A stretch of DNA of 64,000 nt from Porphyridium purpureum (GCA_008690995.1 VRMN01000001.1:744001-808000), one strand, 5' to 3'; counted from the stretch's first letter, positions 52,116-64,000 are shown. Made by a program: numbers and translations. The notes: a model not told the origin generated them from the letters alone.

Positions 52116-53114
52116 CTATTGTGCAGGACCCGCCGCTTGTTCTTCTGTTGGACCTCTGGCCTCCGGTCGCCTTCTTGCTTCAGGGTATCTTCTAAAGACC
52201 TTTGTTGGCGGCTTGAGATTCTGTGCGTCTGGGTCAAAGACAAGCACGTCCTCTACCGCTTTGTAATACTGAGGTGAAATATATTCTTTGAGTTCTTCGG
52301 CAGTGAGCCACAGAAAGTCGACACCATGGCGGAGCTTCGAAACTTCTCCGGTAATCAGCTCTGCAGGATAAAAGAAGATCTTGACGCCGTGAACCTGGTT
52401 CTTCTTCTGGTACTCGGCCGAGTAGCTATACTCTAGATGCGCATGAGGCCGGTAGGTTGTATAGTAAGTTTGAACTTTTTGATCGCCCAGCACGGCCTTC
52501 AGTGCCTTCTCTGCGGAATCGCGCAATTTTTCGTCATCCCCAGTGACGCGCTGCGGAAACTGATAAAATTCACTTGTCTCTGTCCGCTTCAGGACAAAGT
52601 ATAGCGTCCGATCGAGCTTCCGATGCAGCGAGCGAAGGTCGTTCGTTTTATCGGCTTCGGTGATACGTGGCGCCGGCACGAACAACTCCCCGCGCTTCTG
52701 GTTTGCTTTAAATGAATCTCGTTCCATCTCTGACACAGGTTGCAAGCGCTCATCTCGCCTCGCGGCAAACCGGTTGAAGTGCTGAAACTTGTTCTCCTCG
52801 TACAGCTCCTCAATTGGCTTTGGTTGCGGTAGGATGATCGGCCCGCGTTCAAAGATTACCGCGCTCGCAAACTTCCACGGGAATCCGCTCGGCCCTAAAA
52901 CAACCCGATCCTTCATAGGCACAACGACCTCTGGCGTGTCGCGCTTCGAACCGAACAGCCACTGAAGCTCCTCGGACTTGAAGCGCCGCGGCTTGCCGGT
53001 GAAGCCGCGTACTTGCGCGAGCTCACCATGCCGTGTCTTTTGCACAAGCATGTACTTGGCGGATAGTTCCGACAAAGCGCGACATGGCCACGACACTTTC
53101 CGGCTCAGATTCAT
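52116..53114 (-). CDS. Mitochondrial ribosomal protein mL46 (Nudix-like C-terminus)
   Basis: ER.PII, PAPRITEADKTNDLRSLHRKLDRTLY, QFPQ, KIFFYPA, DFLWLTAEEL. Confidence 0.9.
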   Translation of the reverse strand: MNLSRKVSWPCRALSELSAKYMLVQKTRHGELAQVRGFTGKPRRFKSEELQWLFGSKRDTPEVVVPMKDRVVLGPSGFPWKFASAVIFERGPIILPQPKPIEELYEENKFQHFNRFAARRDERLQPVSEMERDSFKANQKRGELFVPAPRITEADKTNDLRSLHRKLDRTLYFVLKRTETSEFYQFPQRVTGDDEKLRDSAEKALKAVLGDQKVQTYYTTYRPHAHLEYSYSAEYQKKNQVHGVKIFFYPAELITGEVSKLRHGVDFLWLTAEELKEYISPQYYKAVEDVLVFDPDAQNLKPPTKVFRRYPEARRRPEARGPTEEQAAGPAQ

Positions 53115-53405
53115 CCTCGCTGGTGACTCTCACTCGAATCACTCGCCTACCACTCTTCGGCCGTCGAGCCTGCAAAAATGTTTGGTTCTGTGTCCCACAT
53201 GCGCCGTGAAAGATCGACGCCACTCGTTCGACAAGGACGGGCGTTAAGCGGTACGAAGAGATGAAACTGGGATAGCGGGGCTGAGGCGTGATCAATCCAC
53301 CGCCACATGTAACTGAAGACCATGTCGTTTATATATGTGGAGCTTAACATACGAATGAAAAGATGAATCGAGGCCAATGCATGCCGACTGTCGCTGTGGG
53401 CACTT

Positions 53406-53798
53406 TCAATCCTTAATCTTGTCGAACTCGCCTGCGTAGCCAAGGGCGCCCATATGCCAGACCTTACCTGGAGTGGGCGGCAGGTCCGAAACCGTCCTAT
53501 ACGGCTCAACTGTTTCGCGCGTGATCCTGCGGCGAGAGTCACGCACCGAGTAGTTAATGTCAAACACCTTGCGGTACTCGCCTTGCGGAATCTGGACCTT
53601 TGGCTGGGACGCCGGGGACGGGTATCGGTAGTGCGTTTCCTGGAATGGCCTACGCAGTGTGTCTTCGGCCAAGTCCTGTCGCAAGATCTTCCCCGTCGTC
53701 AGAATCGTCTTCATCCGCTCAATCAGCCCGCGAAGCCCTCCCGCGTTCGCACCGCTTTGAGCCCCGCTCAGAAGCATGCGTGTTGGTCGCAGCGCCAT
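53406..53798 (-). CDS. NADH:ubiquinone oxidoreductase subunit NDUFA7/B14.5a-like
   Basis: YRYPSPASQP, NYSVRDSRR, LPPTPG. Confidence 0.8.
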   Translation of the reverse strand: MALRPTRMLLSGAQSGANAGGLRGLIERMKTILTTGKILRQDLAEDTLRRPFQETHYRYPSPASQPKVQIPQGEYRKVFDINYSVRDSRRRITRETVEPYRTVSDLPPTPGKVWHMGALGYAGEFDKIKD

Positions 53799-54119
53799 GC
53801 TGTTTGTGTCGTGCTTGCGCTTGTGCTCACCCACGCGCTCGCCACCACTCCGTTCTTCCCAACCCGCTTGTTTGTGCGGAGACCCTTCACACACTGTTGA
53901 ACATCACACGTGCGCGAAAGACTTCTGCCGGTAACGCGGTGGCTGGATTTGACGCAAAGTGGATAGGGACGAGGCCGTGTTGGAGCAAAGGGAAACAGAA
54001 TTTCCGCAGTGGAGCAATCCGTGACGAGGATGCAGCAACGATAGACGCCAGTCTCGCAGAAAACAAACAAACTAACAAGTGCAGTTTACCCGTCTCTGAG
54101 ATCTTGATAATGAGGGGAA

Positions 54120-55388
54120 TTACAAGATGATCTCGCCGCGACAGCTGCTGCTAATGCTCTTGTTCGCGAGGACGACGCAGCTATCAACAACGACCTCGGC
54201 GTTGGCAGTCACCCCGGCACTGAAAATGGACGGGCTGGTTTCTGAGCCCTGCACGCGAGTCCAAGCGCCGATTTGCGAGTTCCATCCAATGATGCTGTTC
54301 TTGACGAACGCGTGCTCGCGGATAATCACGTCCTCGAGGATGATGCAGTCCAGCAGACGCGCACCGGCACCAATCATAACACCGGCCGCGATGGTCACGT
54401 TAGGCCCCACACGTGCACCCGGTTGAATATTTGCAGACGGATGGATCAAGCATGGCTCCTGGATATCCAGCTTCGCGGCGCTTGTCCCGACGTCGAAACT
54501 ACTTTGGCTCGCTGCCCTGGCAAGCGTGCCGCGCGTGGCGGCCAGGTTTTTCGACAGGAGCTCTGGCTTTGCCTTGGCAAAGTATTCCAGGTAGAGCTTG
54601 GTCGCAATCAACGCGTGCACAGGGACCTTGATCTGAAACCAGAATTCCTCCATCTTGTACACGTAGATGAACTGCTGGCCAGCCATAGGCATGAGTAGAT
54701 CCTGCTCCAATCGAACAATCCCTTCTTCTTGATCCGAGCCCATTGCTGACGAACGCGATCCGCCAACGGTCTGCAGCTTGTCAAACACGTCCGGATGGAA
54801 GACGTAAACGCCGCAGTTGATGACCGGCGAGATGTTGGACTGTGGCTTGGCGGCGTAGTGGATCATCTCATCGCTTTCCGGATTCACGGCCATTTCGCCA
54901 TACTTGTGCGCCTCCTCTAGGGACAGCTCCTTCCCGAGCACCGTGACCCTGGCCGATTTGGCGGCATGGAAAGCAAGCATTTTGGCGAGCGGGAATGAGC
55001 AGGCAATGTCGCAGTGTAAAATCACGACGGCAGATGGGTCGCCGGCCAGAATGTCGTCTCGGTAGCGATTAAGGCCGCCGGCAGAGCCGAGCGACACGAT
55101 TTCGCGCAAGTATCGAATGCGGATCCCGTACCTCTCGGTGCACCCCTCGATGAACGGTGTGAAGAGCTCTTCCTCATAAAAGCCCAGCAGAATGATCTCC
55201 GCCATATTGTCGAGCGTGGCGCACGCCTGGATGTGATGCTCGACCATGGGGAAGCCCGCCACCGGGAAGAGCGGTTTCGGGCAGTCCATCGAGAGCGGGC
55301 GAAAGCGCGTGCCCTTGGACGCGCCGCCCACCAGGATCACAGCCTTGACGGGGCCCGTCTTCTGCTTCTTGCTCACTGGCTCCCCCAT
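54120..55388 (-). CDS. GMPPA: Mannose-1-phosphate guanylyltransferase alpha (regulatory, GMPPA/KONJAC-like)
   Basis: KAVILVGGASKGTRFRPLS (alpha-type insertion), PKPLFPVAG, INCGVY, RLEQD, left-handed beta-helix GPNVTI..SIIGW. Confidence 0.9.
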   Translation of the reverse strand: MGEPVSKKQKTGPVKAVILVGGASKGTRFRPLSMDCPKPLFPVAGFPMVEHHIQACATLDNMAEIILLGFYEEELFTPFIEGCTERYGIRIRYLREIVSLGSAGGLNRYRDDILAGDPSAVVILHCDIACSFPLAKMLAFHAAKSARVTVLGKELSLEEAHKYGEMAVNPESDEMIHYAAKPQSNISPVINCGVYVFHPDVFDKLQTVGGSRSSAMGSDQEEGIVRLEQDLLMPMAGQQFIYVYKMEEFWFQIKVPVHALIATKLYLEYFAKAKPELLSKNLAATRGTLARAASQSSFDVGTSAAKLDIQEPCLIHPSANIQPGARVGPNVTIAAGVMIGAGARLLDCIILEDVIIREHAFVKNSIIGWNSQIGAWTRVQGSETSPSIFSAGVTANAEVVVDSCVVLANKSISSSCRGEIIL

Positions 55389-56170
55389 CTTACGAGCAGG
55401 ATCCGACGTAGCGGCTCGCAAAGTCTCTCGCTAGCCGTCAGAACGCTGCTCTCCACCGCCACGCCACAACCTTTACTCGCTTGCATCCACCGGTTGCCAC
55501 ACTCACACTAAAGAAGCCGCATCACCCCGATTCGTCATAAACACCCTCCATGGGCAAATAAGCTCAGTTTCTGATCTTCAGCCATGCGGGCTATCGATGG
55601 CAGATGTTGCGACAGGCTGGCTGGTTGGGTGGCTGGTTAACCCGCGCGTCGAAGAAAAGCAGGTTTATCGTTTTGGTGGAGTGCCGAGAGCGAGTTCTGG
55701 AATGGCAAGAGCCATCCCTGCGCGAGTCTGGTGTCCGCGTTGAATGAATGTTCTATCTTCTGGGCGTTTTGCGTGCAGAGTGGTTCGCGGGTGCGCTAGC
55801 ACACGACGCAAGCGGCGAAAATGAAGAATACAGGTCTTGGGTGCAACAGGAACACCGCAATCAAACACGAGCTCGGTCGCTTCGTCGATGTTGGATTACA
55901 CGCGCGCGCAACCATGTGGCTCTCTATCTCGCTCTCATTGGTTCGCCCTGCACACACGCACGCACAGACAAACACAGGAGCGAAGAATAGATGACGGTTC
56001 TCGGATACGAGAGCTTTGGCACGATAATACACACCGCAACCGTCCTGCCCTCGAAGAAGCTTAGTGGTACAAATCTTCTGTGAATCTCTCGGGAAAGTCC
56101 CCCCCCGAAGCGTGCCACAGCCTACTTGCCGGTCCGACGCCGCCCAGGGGATAGCGCTGCGCAGGTTTGC

Positions 56171-56485
56171 TTACTTGTTCTCATCCATCGCGGAATCCTC
56201 TTCCAAGACCGCTTCGGCCTCCTTCAAGTACGCCATGTCCTGACTCTCCGGGGGCGGCGTCTCCCCCCACTTTTCCAGCTGCTCTCGGTGCTCTTCACAC
56301 TCTTGTCTCGCATTGGCAGGCATGGGTGTCTTTTTTCTGCTCATGCCGCGCTTGATGGGACCCTCGGAGGCCGGCGGCATCTGTCCAAACTGTACACTCA
56401 CCTTCTTCTTTGGAGACAAGGGCTTCTGCTGCGCGTTCTCTGCTGTGGCCGCGCCCGCGTCGGCTGCCTTTCCTTGCCCCTCCAT
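56171..56485 (-). CDS. Small hydrophilic hypothetical protein (about 104 aa)
   Basis: ATG-initiated ORF with coding-like composition (KKKVSVQF..RKKTPMP); no family recognised. Confidence 0.5.
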   Translation of the reverse strand: MEGQGKAADAGAATAENAQQKPLSPKKKVSVQFGQMPPASEGPIKRGMSRKKTPMPANARQECEEHREQLEKWGETPPPESQDMAYLKEAEAVLEEDSAMDENK

Positions 56486-56694
56486 TCCGCGCGTGTCCAC
56501 CAGCCCGCTCGCACCCACCCTTCCCTCCCCCACACAGATCGCTCCTCGTCCTCGTCACCGTCCCAGCCACGCGATATCCTCCTCGCGTCCCACTACCCCT
56601 TACTACCACAACCACCACCACACACAGAAACACACACAATGCCCACCGCACTCCTCCTTCCCCCCTAGTCTTCCTTACCTCAGCGCCTCCTAAA

Positions 56695-56718
56695 ATCGCC
56701 ATCGCCATCGCCATCGCC
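56695..56718. repeat. (ATCGCC)4 hexanucleotide repeat
   Basis: Read directly from the sequence. Confidence 0.8.
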
Positions 56719-57049
56719 ACCGCCAACACTCCAAGCCTCCGCTTCCCGGAAATCGGTCCGTCGCACGCCTTTGGTAGCACCAAAGCGCCGTCTACATAGA
56801 AAGACAAGATAAGACAAACTTTCATGGCGCTCCCTCCCGATCAGACCTTCTGATTTTGGGGCGTGTTTTGTATGTTTGTGTGTCTGTATTGGTGTCATAC
56901 TAAAAGCGCACGGTTCCTCGACTGAGGTGGAGGCGAAATTTCGCGTCTGGTGACGCGCGTGAATTTGAGAAGAGGGAACGGAGGGGGGGGATCGGGAGGT
57001 ACAGTGTTTGTGTGTGTCTGGGGGGTCCGGGTACAGTGCATTCGAGGAT

Positions 57050-58219
57050 TTAGGGTTGTGTACAGGGTGGAAGCGCGGTGCTGGCTTGGAGGAGGGTATG
57101 GTCGAGGCGGGCGCGACGCAGGTGGCGTCCGATGAAGAGGATGCGGGAGCCGAGGAGTTCCCATGGCTGAGAGGTGGAGAGCGACGCGTTGCCGGCGGGC
57201 GCGCAGACTTCGAACGTGTCGTCCACGCCTTGCACAATCCACCAGTGCGGCGGCTCGCGCTCCCGCTCGTGCTCGGCGTCGCCAGCGCGCGCAGGCGTCG
57301 CCACAGCCACGCGAACAACGCCCTTGATGCGCCAGATCTCTTGCCGGCGCTGCTTCTGATCGTTGGCTTCTAGCAAAGGGTCGCTGCCGCCATTGTCCTC
57401 GACGTCGTCATCGTCGCAACCCCACAGCAAGTCGCCCAGCGCACGTTCCAGTGCACGCGGCTGGAACGTCCAGTTGGCAGGAACGAGAACGACGTGGCTT
57501 TCCAGGCCATGTGAGTGCGACTGCGGCCCGTGACTGTCAGCCGATGTAAGCGCGAGGTCCCGCCGCACCGCGTTAACACTCATCTCGAAGGCGCGTATTC
57601 TAAGCAGGTCATGTAGCGGCACGTCACACTGAACGCAAGCCTGCACGCGCACGCCAGGATTATGGCGTTGCACAAAATCTTCCATGAGTTCGCGCTCTGT
57701 GTCGCTGATCCGGTCTACTTTGTTCAGAAGCACACGGTCCGCAAGCGCAATCTGCTTGATAAACTCGAGGCGGTCCACTTTCCCTTCGGTCTTGACCGCA
57801 CTGGCGTCAACGACCGTGATAATGCCGTCCAGCGCAAGGCGCATTTCCAGTGCCTCGTCGACCCAGAACAAAGCGGCGACGGGCGCCGGATCCGCGGCGC
57901 CAGACGCTTCAATTACAATGTGGTCGATCTGCTTGGCCGCCAGCAGCCGAGCGAGCGCGTCCACGAGGTCGTCCTTGACAGTGCAACATAAGCAGCCGTT
58001 AGGAAGCTCAACAAACTCCGGGATAAGTGTGCTATCCACTCCTTGTGTTACAATGCTATTCTCAATTCCCAGCGTCTGTCCAAACTCATTCTCGACCACT
58101 GCAATCCGCAGTCCATGCTTCTCAGTCAGAATGCGACGGATTAATGTGCTCTTCCCTGCCCCCAAGAATCCGCTGACGAGCGTGACCGGGACAACACCCG
58201 GCTCTTCGATGCTCGACAT
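57050..58219 (-). CDS. COG0523/CobW-family (ZNG1/CBWD-like) metallochaperone GTPase
   Basis: SGFLGAGKS, NEFG, ELPNGCLCC (CxCC), IEASG, NKVD, C-terminal WRIKG..VQGV..FIGR. Confidence 0.93.
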   Translation of the reverse strand: MSSIEEPGVVPVTLVSGFLGAGKSTLIRRILTEKHGLRIAVVENEFGQTLGIENSIVTQGVDSTLIPEFVELPNGCLCCTVKDDLVDALARLLAAKQIDHIVIEASGAADPAPVAALFWVDEALEMRLALDGIITVVDASAVKTEGKVDRLEFIKQIALADRVLLNKVDRISDTERELMEDFVQRHNPGVRVQACVQCDVPLHDLLRIRAFEMSVNAVRRDLALTSADSHGPQSHSHGLESHVVLVPANWTFQPRALERALGDLLWGCDDDDVEDNGGSDPLLEANDQKQRRQEIWRIKGVVRVAVATPARAGDAEHEREREPPHWWIVQGVDDTFEVCAPAGNASLSTSQPWELLGSRILFIGRHLRRARLDHTLLQASTALPPCTQP

Positions 58220-58343
58220 TGCAAGGATGGCTCCGCGAGACCTCGCCTCGAAACCAGACCAGATCGGACACCAGGAAAAGAAGATGACGAAGGAAACAGT
58301 GATGAACTCCTCCTCTTTCCCTTGCAGTCATGGGCGCGGCGCT

Positions 58344-59300
58344 TCAACCTGCGAGAAATGGGTGCGCGCGAACTTGTGCCGCGGTATATCTTTGCTCCGG
58401 AACGCGATCCACGAGTCCGCAAATCAAGTCGTGCGCGTCGGGAAGCGCTTGAACGGCTTCCAATACTCGTTGTCTCAACGCGTCTGGCTCCTGAAAAACG
58501 ATAGCCCTCTGCGCATCTACCGCGCTCCGTTCGCTCCCGAACAGCAGTGTTCCACTCAGACAATAAAAGATCAGGCAGCCCAGACCCCACATATCCGACG
58601 CCTTGGTCACGCGCTGATGTTTCAGCACTTCGGGCGCTGTGCACCACACGGTGGAGTGCACTGTGTAGTTCAAAGAGGCGGTGCGTCCGGAGCCTTCCGA
58701 TTCGGAACCTGGCTCGCCGGTGTGTACCTCTAGCACTACCGCGCTTCCAAAGTCCGCCAGGCGAAGCGAATCCAGCCTCGCTGAGCCGTCAGCATTCGCG
58801 CGCAGGAAAAGAATGTTCTCTGGTTTGAGATCACAATGCACAATTCCCTGAGCGTGAATGTATTCGAGGGCATTGATGAGCTGTATCACCACTTGCCGCG
58901 TATCGTGTGCTGCAAGCCGCCCGTCGTGTCGCGCCTGCAACGCCGCCGCAAGCGTGCCGCCACGACACAGTTCAAGTAGGAAAAACACACACTGCTCATC
59001 GTGGAACGCGCCGAGCATGCGTAGGACATTTATGTGATTCAGCCGGGCGTGCACGCGCCGTTCTTGGATCACGCGCGAAAGCGTCTGAGCCCGCAAACTT
59101 TGTCTCTTATCCACCACTTTGAGCGCCACATACGTGGCGCGCAAGTCAGATGGCAACGACGGCTTGCCACTAGGTCGTAGCCGTGCAGTCAGCACGGTCG
59201 TGAATGGACCCGTGTGCAGCGTTTCACCGAGCTCAAAGTCGTGGATCGTGATGGCGCTATTGGAAGGAGTTTCTTTCGCGTCGTCTGCGGATGTTGCCAT
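58344..59300 (-). CDS. Ser/Thr protein kinase, PDK1/Aurora-like, with divergent Gly loop
   Basis: VALK, HCDLKPENIL, LADFGSA, APE, SDMWGLGC, R...HPF. Confidence 0.88.
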   Translation of the reverse strand: MATSADDAKETPSNSAITIHDFELGETLHTGPFTTVLTARLRPSGKPSLPSDLRATYVALKVVDKRQSLRAQTLSRVIQERRVHARLNHINVLRMLGAFHDEQCVFFLLELCRGGTLAAALQARHDGRLAAHDTRQVVIQLINALEYIHAQGIVHCDLKPENILFLRANADGSARLDSLRLADFGSAVVLEVHTGEPGSESEGSGRTASLNYTVHSTVWCTAPEVLKHQRVTKASDMWGLGCLIFYCLSGTLLFGSERSAVDAQRAIVFQEPDALRQRVLEAVQALPDAHDLICGLVDRVPEQRYTAAQVRAHPFLAG

Positions 59301-60867
59301 GATGCCATCCCATTGACACTCGCTCTCAGCTCCGATTTCGAAATTTCCGGGAGTTACGTTTGGGATTGGGCTGTGTTTTGAGCTTTGGGTTTGGATTTCC
59401 CGTACAAGGCAACATGATTGATTGAGCGCTTCACCAACTAATTGTCACATGGAAAGAACATCAGTTTAATGCTTCTTTCTGTCTCCCAACTCGGCCACGG
59501 AAGACAAGAACGTACCGGAAAGGATCAGTACTGCTCCGCCGCGCATCTTCGGTGCGGAGGTTTGCAGTCCAGTCTTTCGCGTCAACTTTGCGTAGCATGT
59601 ATAAAACCACGACGAGAAGTCGCCGCTCATTGAGAGCCATCAAAACGTGTTCAATGTTTTCGCCTTCGACGGTGATTTCAAGGCCACCGTCAGGAAAGGA
59701 AGTACCGCACCCAAGCCAGCACCCGAGCGGCGTTCAAATGTCCCGGGTTGAACAGAATGAGACATGAAGCGCGGGAACACGTAACAATGAGTATTGAGGC
59801 GGAATAGCCACTCTCGCGCCAAACACGTTCAGAAAGATGCCTGAATAGAATGGGCTCTTAGCGTTGTGCTGTTCCGCAGCGCCATGGTTCTGCTTTGTTC
59901 CGCCGCGCGCCGGCCACTCTCCCTTCTGCTGCAGCTCAGAATGCGCTGGGAACTTGACTGCCATTCCGGACTTTTCCTCAAGCATCAAGCAGCCAACCGC
60001 ACGGCGTTCATCATCATCCGCGCAGCTCCACACCGTTCGTGTTCGCTTGAGCTCACCTGTCAATGCTTTTTCATACGAGCCGCGGATTGTGCGCCTCCAC
60101 CACTCCCGGAAGTAAATAGGATCATTAAGGGCGTGACAAATACTGCTTCACTCATCCTCACATCCCACGTCCACCTACCTCGTCTCTCATCTCCGGACCA
60201 CATCCGTGAACATTTCCCGACTGCTACCGCCACCAACACCGAGCGGCAGCGGTTTCGATTTATCCATCACAGCCAAGTGATCAACAATCTTCGGTCACTG
60301 TACTCGAAATAAGTCAGCGATCAGCCTTGACGGTGCGGCCACACGAATGCATCGCGCGCAAAGTGTTCGGAAATCCCGTGGCGCCATGCATGTACCCCAT
60401 CGACCCGAAAACCAATCGACCACTCCCAATGTCAGACGCGGAGCCCTTTCTGACTGGCGCTCATTTCGTACCCGAGCACAACGGCCATGCTCGGCCTCGA
60501 GCTTCATGCGCGACTGACACAACTTCATCCATCGACGCTCGTTTGCTTCACAGTCTTCCCGCTCTTCAACAGTGGCAGCCACCGAGCCGCGCTGCTCCTA
60601 GCCAAGCTCCTTATCGGTTTCACTTTCGCGGTTATCCGTTTAGCCGTTTCATGAATTGGCGCGTGGCGTGTGTCGAAAGAACCACGAGGGGTACAGTGCG
60701 TACAGTTTGAACGGAACTTTAAATTCTCGCACGCTTGATGATGACAAGCGCACGAGCTCGGATGACACAACCCTTCTCAGATGACCGAACCCCAGCAACA
60801 CGACGCACACGGCACAGAGAACACAACCACACGACGCACACAACACAGACGACGAATACCCGGGGCG

Positions 60868-61522
60868 TGGAAAATCCAACGTATAGGGCCTCTACTATTG
60901 CCTTTCGCGTCGGCACAGACAGCACCGGTCTCGACAGGGGCAGGGTGTCGTAACGGACAAAGCCGCCGTCTGCCTTCAGTGCTCCAAGAGCACCGAAACC
61001 CCCCAGACACGATGTGCTGCTGGCTCTGCTACACAGGCTCAGCAAAAGGCCCCACGTCTTCCGACGACCACGCCCAGGCACCCGACACCAAAGAACAACT
61101 CTTCCTTTATTCTCTGTGTCGTACTCCCTTGCCTCTTCTTCTTCCGCTCTAAAGAAATCCGGGGAACCGCACGGGCCCGCGCCCATTATATACCCCGCCG
61201 TCCTTGCTGTCCTTGACGCGGAAGGGAGAAATTATTTCTCCCAAAAGGCTGGGCTTTCCTCCGTTCGTTCCACGGAACGAAGCCACAGCCAGCCACGTCA
61301 GCAAGCGGCTCAATGGGTGCCGGCCGGCCGCCAAGCGGCTCCTGCTTCCCTCGGACACGCGACTCCGGCTCCTCGGGGCGAAAGACAACAATGCACAAAA
61401 CCAGAGGTACAGGGTAAAAAACCACGCGGGCGAAAAAGCCCCTGTACCTCAAAGAATTCCGAGACGCCGTACCTCTAGGTGTACACCCAGGGCGTCTCTC
61501 GGACCGGAACACTTTTAATCCA
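60868..61522 (-). repeat. Probable 3' LTR (about 655 bp) of the copia element
   Basis: On the minus strand it starts TGGA just after the polypurine tract and ends TCCA at 60868; it contains TATATAA (61192-61186) then AATAAA (61091-61086). The left boundary is inferred because the 5' LTR is outside the window. Confidence 0.55.
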
Positions 61523-64000
61523 TGCTCCTCCTTCCGATCTGAGGGACGCGTAACATGTTCCAACACCTGATGTGACCTTCCGGAAACAAAGGCTTTGTCA
61601 TCAAGTCGGACACGTTTTCTCCCGTCCTCACATACTCCAATGTCACCAACTTCTGCTTCTCGCAAATTTGGTGTATCCACGCCAAGTCCGTGGCTCTGGT
61701 TACTGCCATGTGATGCAACTTTGGCGAATATCCCATCTCGACCGCACGGAGAACAACTTGACTATCACAAAGCAGGGTCAACGCATAATCCCCCTCCTGC
61801 ACGCTTCGAAGAAACGACAATGCCGGAAACAAAGATAACTGCACCGTTTCTTCCAGAGCGGCCATCTCAGACTCAGAGGTCGAAGAGCTAACAAAGCGTT
61901 GCCTTCTGGAGCTCCAATCGACCAGATACTTGTTTCCACCCGCGACCAAGTACGTCACTCTTCCAGACGTTGACTTGCGCGTTTCCGGGCATCCAGCAAA
62001 GTCGGCATCAGCATAGCCCAAGACGCTTACGTCACCGACCTTCAATGACGTCATCCGCAAATACTCAAGTGGCTCACGAGGAACCTTCAAGTATTGCATG
62101 ACGCGAACCAGGAGTCTCTCAGCTGCGACGTTCCAGCTATCCACATACCGAGCCACCACTCCAACTGCGTAGGAGATATCCGGTCTGACCGTCCTGGCCA
62201 ACCACAGCAGCCTCCCAACATGCTCGCGTATTTTCAGATGCCCATGTTCGACTTGAACATCCAATACAGCGTCAGCATTCATCTTCTCGCCTGGTGACTT
62301 CACTGCTCGCAGCACCTGCCCAAGCTCTTCTTCAAATTCCTTCACCACCAAGGTTTGGTAGTGATCATGATCCAACGAAAACCGTGTCGCCGACTCCGAG
62401 ATCATGAGACCTAGGAACCTTAACGGGGCTCCTTCCGAGAGGACTTCTGGCTCCTTCTCAATGAGGAACTCTGACCTCAACTCTCGAAATATCTCACCCC
62501 GATCCTTCTCGGCACACGCGAGCAGGCCATCGTCGACATACAAGGCCAAGAGTGCAACAGATGCACTTCCCGCCATCTTTTTCACGTATACGTTCTTCTC
62601 GCCGTGAATCAAATCCCACCCGAACTTTTGAAGTCTTCTGCGGGCATCGATGGAAAAGTCAGACCCGCTTCTTGGTAAGCCATAAAGCGCCCTCCTTAAG
62701 CGAACGACAAGTCCATCACCTCCTCCTGGAACGTGACGGGGCAACATGGCAAACGTCGGTGGTCCTGACAAGTCAGCGTGTAAGTACGCCGACGTCACAT
62801 CGAACGACACGATTTTCAATCCCAGGATCGCGGCCAAAGCTATCAACATTCTGATTGCAGACAGGCCCGCGGGCACCTCATAGTCAAACACATCCTGAGT
62901 GACCTTCCCTGAGGCATCCCAAATCCTATTTCCACCAGCAACAAGCCGACACTTGACCTTGCGAAACTCCTCCGGAAGCTCAGCGAACTTCAATCCGAAT
63001 ATAAAGTGTGTCCGCACAAATCGTGCGCCTGGGACCTTGAGAGCTTCTTCCCTTGAAATAGGTTGCTCATCCCATACCTTGAATCGAATCATCAAGTCCA
63101 CTTCTTTTTGCATGGCTTCTCTTCCAGCCGAAGAAGCCAGAGCTTGGCTCGTCTGCAACAAAGTTGTCAAGTTCAATTGCGGTGTTTCTGGAGCAACTCC
63201 TGCGCGTTGCTTCCAATTTTCCTCCGAGAGGCCCATATTATGGGCCCGGGCTCGCACATCCTTTCCGTTTCTTGAATTGCGGAACACTGCCTTGTATTCT
63301 TGCAGAGTTCTTTCCCACTTCCCCCAGCCAAAGAGCCGTAAGCCATCCATGATGGCCTGATCCTCTTCCCGGCTCCAAGCTACACTGGGTTTTCGTTTCC
63401 CCCTTCTTCCAATAGGTAGGGGAACGTCCTCCTCCAAGTTCCCGGACACACGCGCCTCGGCCGTATTCGTAGGCAACACCATAGTCTCTTGACTATCCGG
63501 TTCTTCCTGCCTAGAGTGAAAGTCGATTTCACCCTCACGTGCCGAGACCTCCTCGTCATCCTTTGTTTCCAAAGTCCGCATTGGAAACACTTCAGGGAAC
63601 GCCTTGAAGTCCTGAGTGCGAGTCAGCCTCGGTACCGCACTCGTCCACTCCTCCTGAGGAAGGACCCAGATTGCCAGCGGATGCTCCGCAACTCCAACAA
63701 GGACTCCAATCTTTCCTCTGGGTGCATACTTGTTCTCAGGTTGATCATTCTTGAACACCACCTTGCATCCAAATGGTACTGCTACCTTCCCCCGCTTCCA
63801 TCTCTCACCGTACCTCATTTCATACGGAGACTTCCCAGACCTCTTGTCTGGGTGCAGCCGATTGAACATGAAGACGAAATGCTGAGCGGCATGCAAAAAC
63901 CACCGCTTTCCCAGCCCAGACTGCAGGAGATTTGCTCGTACCCCCTGATTCAAAGTATGATGGAAACGTTCCTGTTCAGCGTGGCTATTTGGTCTATGTG
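61515..64000 (-). CDS. Ty1/copia Pol polyprotein (integrase C-part, Myb/SANT domain, RT, RNase H), 5'-truncated by the window edge
   Basis: PNSHAEQERFHHT, SPYE, PFGC, KCRLVAGG, FDVTSAYLHA, LRRALYGL, LYVDD, FLGL, RPDISYAV, YADADFAG, SSTSESE, SDLMTKPL. The frame is open to the window end. Confidence 0.95.
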   Translation of the reverse strand, partial: HRPNSHAEQERFHHTLNQGVRANLLQSGLGKRWFLHAAQHFVFMFNRLHPDKRSGKSPYEMRYGERWKRGKVAVPFGCKVVFKNDQPENKYAPRGKIGVLVGVAEHPLAIWVLPQEEWTSAVPRLTRTQDFKAFPEVFPMRTLETKDDEEVSAREGEIDFHSRQEEPDSQETMVLPTNTAEARVSGNLEEDVPLPIGRRGKRKPSVAWSREEDQAIMDGLRLFGWGKWERTLQEYKAVFRNSRNGKDVRARAHNMGLSEENWKQRAGVAPETPQLNLTTLLQTSQALASSAGREAMQKEVDLMIRFKVWDEQPISREEALKVPGARFVRTHFIFGLKFAELPEEFRKVKCRLVAGGNRIWDASGKVTQDVFDYEVPAGLSAIRMLIALAAILGLKIVSFDVTSAYLHADLSGPPTFAMLPRHVPGGGDGLVVRLRRALYGLPRSGSDFSIDARRRLQKFGWDLIHGEKNVYVKKMAGSASVALLALYVDDGLLACAEKDRGEIFRELRSEFLIEKEPEVLSEGAPLRFLGLMISESATRFSLDHDHYQTLVVKEFEEELGQVLRAVKSPGEKMNADAVLDVQVEHGHLKIREHVGRLLWLARTVRPDISYAVGVVARYVDSWNVAAERLLVRVMQYLKVPREPLEYLRMTSLKVGDVSVLGYADADFAGCPETRKSTSGRVTYLVAGGNKYLVDWSSRRQRFVSSSTSESEMAALEETVQLSLFPALSFLRSVQEGDYALTLLCDSQVVLRAVEMGYSPKLHHMAVTRATDLAWIHQICEKQKLVTLEYVRTGENVSDLMTKPLFPEGHIRCWNMLRVPQIGRRSMD
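61525..61535 (-). other. Polypurine tract GGAAGGAGGAG
   Basis: Purine run at the end of RNase H, 2 nt before the TG of the putative LTR. Confidence 0.7.

Follow-up and report, generated by a model that had tools for sequence, protein, structure and literature searches.

Host-type modules at the integrase tail are already known from LTR retrotransposons. Diatom CoDi-A elements of the Ty1/Copia group carry a putative chromodomain at the integrase C-terminus (PMC2774666), Ty3/Gypsy chromoviruses carry a chromodomain that reads histone marks at this position (PMC2774666, PMC12477314), and in Ty1 and Ty5, both of the Copia superfamily, integrase C-terminal targeting regions contact a Pol III subunit and Sir4, respectively (PMC5911963). 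As far as the available portions of these sources extend, integrase targeting parts use chromatin marks or host proteins, and Myb DNA readers are described only for non-LTR elements. R2 and R4/Dong encode an N-terminal Myb/SANT domain, often beside a zinc-binding motif (PMC12203849, PMC7998251), and Myb domains direct R2 insertion (PMC12203849). In the accessible portions of the full-text literature (including PMC2868851, PMC3248453 and PMC6431247; subscription journals, Repbase and GyDB fall outside this scope), no Myb or SANT domain was found in the polyprotein of an LTR element. Among 4,811 angiosperm Copia consensus sequences that were screened, domain gain is likewise not reported in the available part of the paper, whose supplementary domain chart may bear on the point (PMC9289625).

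The young, multicopy Copia-type element described here lies in a 64,000-nt stretch of Porphyridium purpureum DNA (GCA_008690995.1 VRMN01000001.1:744001-808000), hereafter the window, and its Pol carries a Myb domain that is real, conserved and apparently undescribed. What appears to be new is not a host-type module at the integrase tail as such but a Myb there, in a mosaic Copia lineage with an exchangeable slot. The features of the element are as follows.

61515..63998, minus strand: 3' part of pol (integrase tail, SH3-like region, linker, Myb, RT, RNase H); frame open at the window edge
63570..63998, minus strand: end of the integrase core and SH3-like region, aa 1-143; weak PF25597 match, E 0.02
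63408..63569, minus strand: acidic, poorly conserved linker, aa 144-197; from sequence
63387..63407, minus strand: basic arm, aa 198-204, ahead of helix 1; from sequence, aligning near the TRF1 N-terminal arm
63231..63398, minus strand: telobox-like single Myb domain, aa 201-256; profile, model and fold matches
63237..63266, minus strand: predicted recognition helix, aa 245-254; model and Tbf1 alignment
61584..63182, minus strand: Copia-type reverse transcriptase and RNase H, aa 273 to about 805; RVT_2 at aa 326-556
61512..61536, minus strand: purine-rich tract across the pol stop, candidate polypurine tract; from sequence
60717..61511, minus strand: 3' LTR, about 795 bp, TG start; depth step, loose ends and sequence

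The minus-strand frame 63998..61515 is uninterrupted over 827 aa and encodes, in order, an integrase tail, SH3_retrovirus, an acidic linker, Myb, RVT_2 (E 2e-16) and an RNase H-like end; the annotated protein P0056 is identical to it across 789 aligned residues. The integrase-core end and SH3-like region are 68% identical to the sister family, and rve is detected in full-length copies of the window family, which has the Copia order PR-IN-RT-RH with an RVT_2-type RT. Full-length copies match Retrotrans_gag, Ty3_capsid, gag-asp_proteas and Asp_protease_2, while Copia-type Gag (Retrotran_gag_2) with its protease (Pol_BBD) was not found in the family copies. Ty3/Gypsy-type Gag and protease upstream of a Copia-order IN-RT-RH occur in P0021, P0056, P0066, P0068, P0213 and P0217, and a PDB search with the Gag returned zinc knuckles only. 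Gene models suggest that gag and pol are separate frames, and one annotated protein, P0050, is gag alone, ending after the zinc knuckle. The Gypsy-type Gag and protease, and the exchangeable slot described below, go beyond the original prediction for this locus.

The outer end of the 3' LTR, at 60716-60717, is marked by a depth step and loose ends (60714-60717) in all four runs; its start at ~61511 comes from sequence, with 61522 a possible alternative, and the 5' LTR lies outside the window. The LTR end reads ...TTTAAAG, without the canonical CA, and is directly followed, by the letters at one low-depth joint, by TGGTATC, which we take to resemble an initiator-tRNA primer site. In two contigs, and in a non-internal context, AAAG immediately precedes the TG start (window 60714-60725, 61506-61524). 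A degenerate 9/17-bp tandem repeat lies inside the LTR (60798-60854), and GGTACAG-type motifs are repeated or inverted near its U3 end (about 61400-61490); a GTACAG motif, seen in LTR and flank, was absent from the other readable flanks and was dropped.

The original prediction had placed a Myb/SANT-type domain in frame between integrase and RT at 63231..63398, which is exactly aa 201-256 (the peptide it quoted is aa 201-255), and both profile searches and structure prediction bear it out. The isolated region matches PF00249 (Myb_DNA-binding) at E 3.5e-6 (27.5 bits) and E 2e-6 (28.3 bits), above the curated cut-off of 24.4 bits; in the whole window protein the match falls under it, at 21.6 bits, which is likely why the precomputed annotation of relatives lists no Myb. 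PF00249 matches seven of the eight element domains at E <= 1. A leave-one-group-out profile built from the other element Mybs finds the window domain at E 1e-16, the best non-Myb among 172 proteins scoring 0.11, and such profiles recover each omitted domain (E 1e-16 to 9e-3; best non-Myb 0.023-0.34). On this sequence evidence the Myb match is not due to chance. An AlphaFold2 model from the eight-sequence alignment has three helices (aa 210-223, 228-234 and 245-254; mean pLDDT 80); single-sequence prediction was uninformative (pLDDT 50.6).

Both sequence and predicted fold point to telomere-binding proteins. The best PDB sequence match of the window Myb is the human TRF1 Myb (E 6e-4), and VIA-align over 48,161 chains ranks TRF1 first (Z 7.9, rmsd 1.4 A over 51 aa, 33% identity), followed by Tbf1 (Z 6.8), with c-Myb and SANT entries at 5.7 or less and the R2-type structure 8ibw at 5.1. 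The best single-domain profile match is an S. pombe Tbf1-type telobox (E 2.8e-7), and c-Myb chains outscore Tbf1 only by summing repeats. Foldseek also ranks TRF1 top, but with nothing at E <= 0.001, and a Z of 7.9 is middling, in the range common for small helical domains; the identification therefore rests on profile, fold and homologues together. The first two Trp are invariant in all eight element Mybs and the third is Ala in seven, including the window Myb (A252), as in fungal Tbf1. An origin from SHAQKYF-class Mybs, of which we take the SHAQKYF motif to be a marker, was considered and set aside, as the Tbf1 alignment accounts for the Trp-to-Ala change; an NCBIfam scan gave no Myb match, which says little either way. 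The proposed TRF/telobox likeness thus stands, in that the domain is, by sequence and model, a real Myb fold closest to the TRF/Tbf1 teloboxes. With TRF1/TRF2 and Tbf1 (PDB 1w0t, 8ynu, 8x6d) it shares the three-helix fold, the first two Trp and a basic arm, which here is a candidate minor-groove arm or nuclear localisation signal, and with Tbf1 also the third Trp-to-Ala change. Unlike them, it has R-A-H in place of the K-D-R triad and sits inside a retrotransposon Pol, in which no TRFH dimerisation domain was detected.

The surroundings of the domain were also largely as predicted. An SH3-like region (weak, E 0.02) and an acidic linker (from sequence) precede it; the order, with RT following, was correct, but the junction is not direct, ~17 residues (aa 256-272) lying between the Myb and the conserved RT-opening strand. 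This strand, which the clade conserves, aligns with its counterpart in ordinary Copia elements, and the Myb lies N-terminal of it, in agreement with the proposed integrase C-terminal slot. The element thereby shares the Copia domain order with CoDi-A, and a host-type module at this place with CoDi-A and the chromoviruses, but has a DNA-binding-type Myb fold where they have a chromodomain (PMC2774666, PMC12477314); relative to Ty1 and Ty5 it has, at the same Pol position, a folded domain belonging to a host family of transcription factors (PMC5911963).

Word-index searches with the Myb region return only the window family, and relatives came from an HMMER search of representatives. Among 171 related proteins (148 from the representative search, 22 from annotated relatives, and P0004), an element-Myb profile finds eight at E < 1e-5, namely its seven members and P0133, the next best scoring 0.076. 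A homologous Myb occupies the same slot in eight other clusters, 31-37% identical to the window Pol, and stands directly before RT in all seven with enough upstream sequence. All seven Myb-carrying clusters that were looked up, P0133 not among them, name P. purpureum, and a Myb in Copia Pol is known so far from this one species. A metagenome scan with the LTR end gave no matches; one with an alignment query gave three short loci, none with a Myb, and only one of these has ~100 codons upstream of RT.

In RT-RH trees (78 rows, fragments and near-duplicates dropped, and 21 rows), Myb elements fall into three sub-lineages of one 16-row clade (support 99/98), requiring at least four state changes, and a test of their monophyly rejects it (p-AU 2e-51). 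The RT-RH tree fits either a single old capture followed by repeated losses or later swapping; a Myb-only tree is unresolved save for one group. The Myb is absent from many relatives. In the most closely related sister family, which is 72% identical in RT and has 16 members, a coiled-coil-like stretch takes its place; this family is equally expanded, so the Myb is dispensable. In 28 of the 171 proteins the part of Pol from integrase to RT includes a Cys-rich motif (CxxC...CxxC...H, mostly with three further Cys after it), a 29th match, in gag, being excluded from the count. This module, probably zinc-binding by its sequence, had no Pfam match in the proteins scanned; in P0064 and P0068 it stands directly before the Myb, an arrangement that recalls the zinc-binding motif beside many R2 and R4/Dong Mybs. 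Since relatives have a Cys-rich module or a coiled coil at the Myb site, the slot is exchangeable, unlike that of the CoDi-A and chromovirus chromodomains. The Cys-rich module is conserved throughout a large, divergent clade of Copia elements; P0022, for instance, has it from aa 225 and P0067 from aa 326.

Two relatives, P0207 and P0215, combine a Copia-type Gag, protease and integrase with an acidic Myb. In an integrase tree they group among ordinary Copia integrases, outside the divergent group (100/100), while by RT they are members of the Porphyridium clade. They are mosaics of an ordinary-type integrase and a divergent RT, in which the Myb travelled with RT and not with the integrase core.

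Among P0063, P0066 and P0070, pairwise identity is 35/57, 39/57 and 41/57 in the Myb core (61-72%) and 333/536, 330/536 and 365/537 in RT-RH (62-68%), against 5/37, 13/39 and 13/63 in the linker before the Myb (14-33%); by Fisher tests Myb differs from linker (p 2e-8 to 9e-4) but not from RT (p 0.39-1.0). The window family and P0064 agree at 23/56 Myb positions (41%) and 191/515 RT-RH positions (37%), while the acidic pair is weaker (Myb 19/54 vs RT 182/330, p 0.008). As the Myb is conserved like RT between three sister families whose linker is eroded, sequence comparison indicates that it is kept under selection. Such a Myb, retained by selection in a Copia Pol while close sister families have other modules at the same site, amounts to a natural experiment on whether the module sets target choice.

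Within the window family, annotated copies are 97-100% identical to the window copy in protein, which fits the recent LTR expansion reported for the P. purpureum genome (PMC6811547), and the acidic linker is the most variable part of Pol, both among copies and between families. Of the 15 annotated copies covering the slot, 12 retain an intact Myb (P0001 and P0056 counted as one, likewise P0054 and P0003; gag-only P0050 and RNase H-only P0018 omitted; two of 17 main-cluster members unlisted). Two of the remaining copies, P0019 and P0055, lack 56 aa. The gap ends fit GT..AG in the window DNA, and no spliced or deleted-Myb joint was found in eight alignments of contigs from seven runs, although contigs drop rare variants; the gap is probably a gene-prediction intron, and real splicing or deletion was rejected. 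One RNA-labelled run spans the Myb region in a single unspliced contig. Relative to the window Myb, the run contigs show only three silent and three replacement variants, all of them outside the core positions, and the contigs examined contain neither stops nor indels in the Myb. The third copy (P0054 with P0003) is interrupted exactly at the Myb start (window 63404) by a TG-starting sequence, with a matching loose end, probably another LTR element.

What the domain might bind is suggested by its third helix. In TRF1, Lys, Asp and Arg of helix 3 read telomeric bases (PMC8867601). A gapless alignment to Tbf1 equates these telobox positions with R249, A250 and H253; the triad is complete in none of the eight element Mybs, and Asp is present in none. 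The positions matching TRF1 R415 and R423, which contact the DNA backbone and also form structural salt bridges (PMC2377444), are each basic in all eight. The window Myb has a net charge of +6, a pI of 10.6 and a basic helix 3; six of the eight element Mybs are basic (pI 9.7-10.7) and two acidic (pI 4.5-4.6, net charge -7). Histone-tail-binding SANT domains have an acidic surface and a non-basic helix 3, features seen only in the relatives P0065 and P0098 (net -7) and not in the window Myb. The diverged recognition helix of the original prediction is thus confirmed, while the SANT-like histone binding offered with it fits poorly with a pI of 10.6, albeit two relatives are acidic. TERB1 provides a precedent of another kind: its telobox-like Myb also has a substituted triad, with His at the Arg position, and has lost DNA binding altogether, but it has Ala at the Lys position, where the window Myb has Arg beside a basic helix 3 (PMC8867601).

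The explanation we lean towards, with slightly less than even confidence, is that a conserved telobox-like Myb, likely host-captured and likely on the integrase tail, anchors the integration complex on chromosomal DNA with a recognition helix re-specified away from TTAGGG. Its foundations, namely domain identity, in-frame position, retention, RT-level conservation, slot exchange and triad loss, are observed. From these, the Myb would have been captured from a host gene, and the element protease would cut at the conserved hydrophobic strand just after it. Copia polyproteins are in general cleaved by the protease at the IN/RT boundary. If the cut falls at the RT-opening strand, the Myb stays on the integrase tail, in the place of the Ty1, Ty5 and CoDi-A targeting parts, and by this analogy may have a targeting role; the basic arm and helix 3 would then bind DNA, and the tethered complex would shift insertion sites. 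Against such a DNA tether stand the equal expansion of the sister family with a coiled coil, the second role of the conserved arginines in TRF1 salt bridges (PMC2377444), the loss of DNA binding in TERB1 (PMC8867601), the joint travel of Myb and RT in P0207 and P0215, and the modest Foldseek and Z values. Moreover, no common motif is clear in the three individually readable flanks (that of the window and one each in X8 and X4). In contrast to R2 and R4/Dong, which insert site-specifically by target-primed reverse transcription (PMC12203849, PMC7998251), the window element is a DDE-integrase LTR element with no fixed-site evidence. Should the Myb read DNA directly, it would offer a natural model of a sequence-guided DDE integrase.

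A broader version of this DNA-tether explanation, possible but speculative, takes in a whole red-algal radiation of mosaic LTR elements, with Gag and protease of Ty3/Gypsy type joined to Copia IN-RT-RH. Their Myb would have been captured from a telomere protein, have acquired a recognition helix of new specificity and read DNA directly as a targeting domain on integrase. It would be one of several interchangeable modules (a basic or an acidic Myb, a Cys-rich finger, a coiled coil) through which sister families would divide the insertion niches of a compact genome among themselves.

Alternatively, the Myb may act on the element itself, on LTR cDNA ends or element RNA, in reverse transcription or integration-complex assembly, leaving target choice unaffected. 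We regard this as unlikely but deserving of attention, as the Myb follows RT-RH in the mosaic relatives, abuts the RT start in P0068, and belongs to a family whose LTR ends look non-canonical. Yet it lies N-terminal of the presumed IN/RT junction strand, and close relatives swap in unrelated modules, which is easier to reconcile with an accessory targeting slot than with a core step.

It is improbable, to about a similar degree, that the Myb links integrase to a protein of the host or to a histone tail, in the manner of SANT or TERB1, without reading DNA. The incomplete triad in all eight Mybs, the two acidic relatives, the coiled coil among the alternative modules, the TERB1 precedent (PMC8867601) and the protein contacts through which Ty1 and Ty5 target (PMC5911963) all agree with such a protein tether, but the window Myb and five others are basic, helix 3 is conserved as basic, and SANT structures rank under TRF1 and Tbf1.

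It is very doubtful that the Myb recognises a repeat of the host's telomeres or subtelomeres and guides insertions towards chromosome ends, even though its closest solved relatives are telomere-binding Mybs. Binding of canonical telomeric repeats, an example given in the original prediction, is not supported: with the triad lost and the insertion in gene-dense DNA, TTAGGG targeting by the window Myb is unlikely. The window copy lies ~1.3 kb from a protein kinase gene, the annotated region at 52-60 kb of the window is gene-dense, and no telomere-like array, tRNA gene or Rfam RNA was found in the whole 64-kb window, including the ~60 kb flank, which has genes in the part examined. An unusual host repeat is possible, the P. 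purpureum telomere having hybridised to neither a human-type nor a Cyanidioschyzon-type probe in the available account (PMC3622300). Of six named Myb-family proteins on a 5.7-Mb contig, three have accessions at the low end of the range seen for that contig, but the other three are well inside the range (accession order being an assumed proxy for position), and copies are spread over at least 11 contigs. Pol III-type targeting was also rejected, with neither tRNA nor Rfam RNA within the window. The host genes at 52116-59444 encode a protein kinase, a CobW GTPase and a GDP-mannose pyrophosphorylase-like protein, as well as complex I B14.5a-like and mitochondrial L46-like proteins.

Finally, that the Myb is a functionless passenger, recently captured and now decaying, is scarcely credible and largely refuted, since the three of 15 copies without an intact Myb and its absence from many relatives are set against RT-level conservation beside an eroded linker, homologues in three RT sub-lineages and a reading frame free of stops and indels in the contigs examined. 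Other domains were seen on Copia-type relatives: P0081 bears a C-terminal AAA_28 P-loop NTPase (aa 1213-1375, E 5e-13), which may be a gene-model fusion, and P0030, a Copia-type RT protein, is listed with PF00692, presumably a dUTPase.
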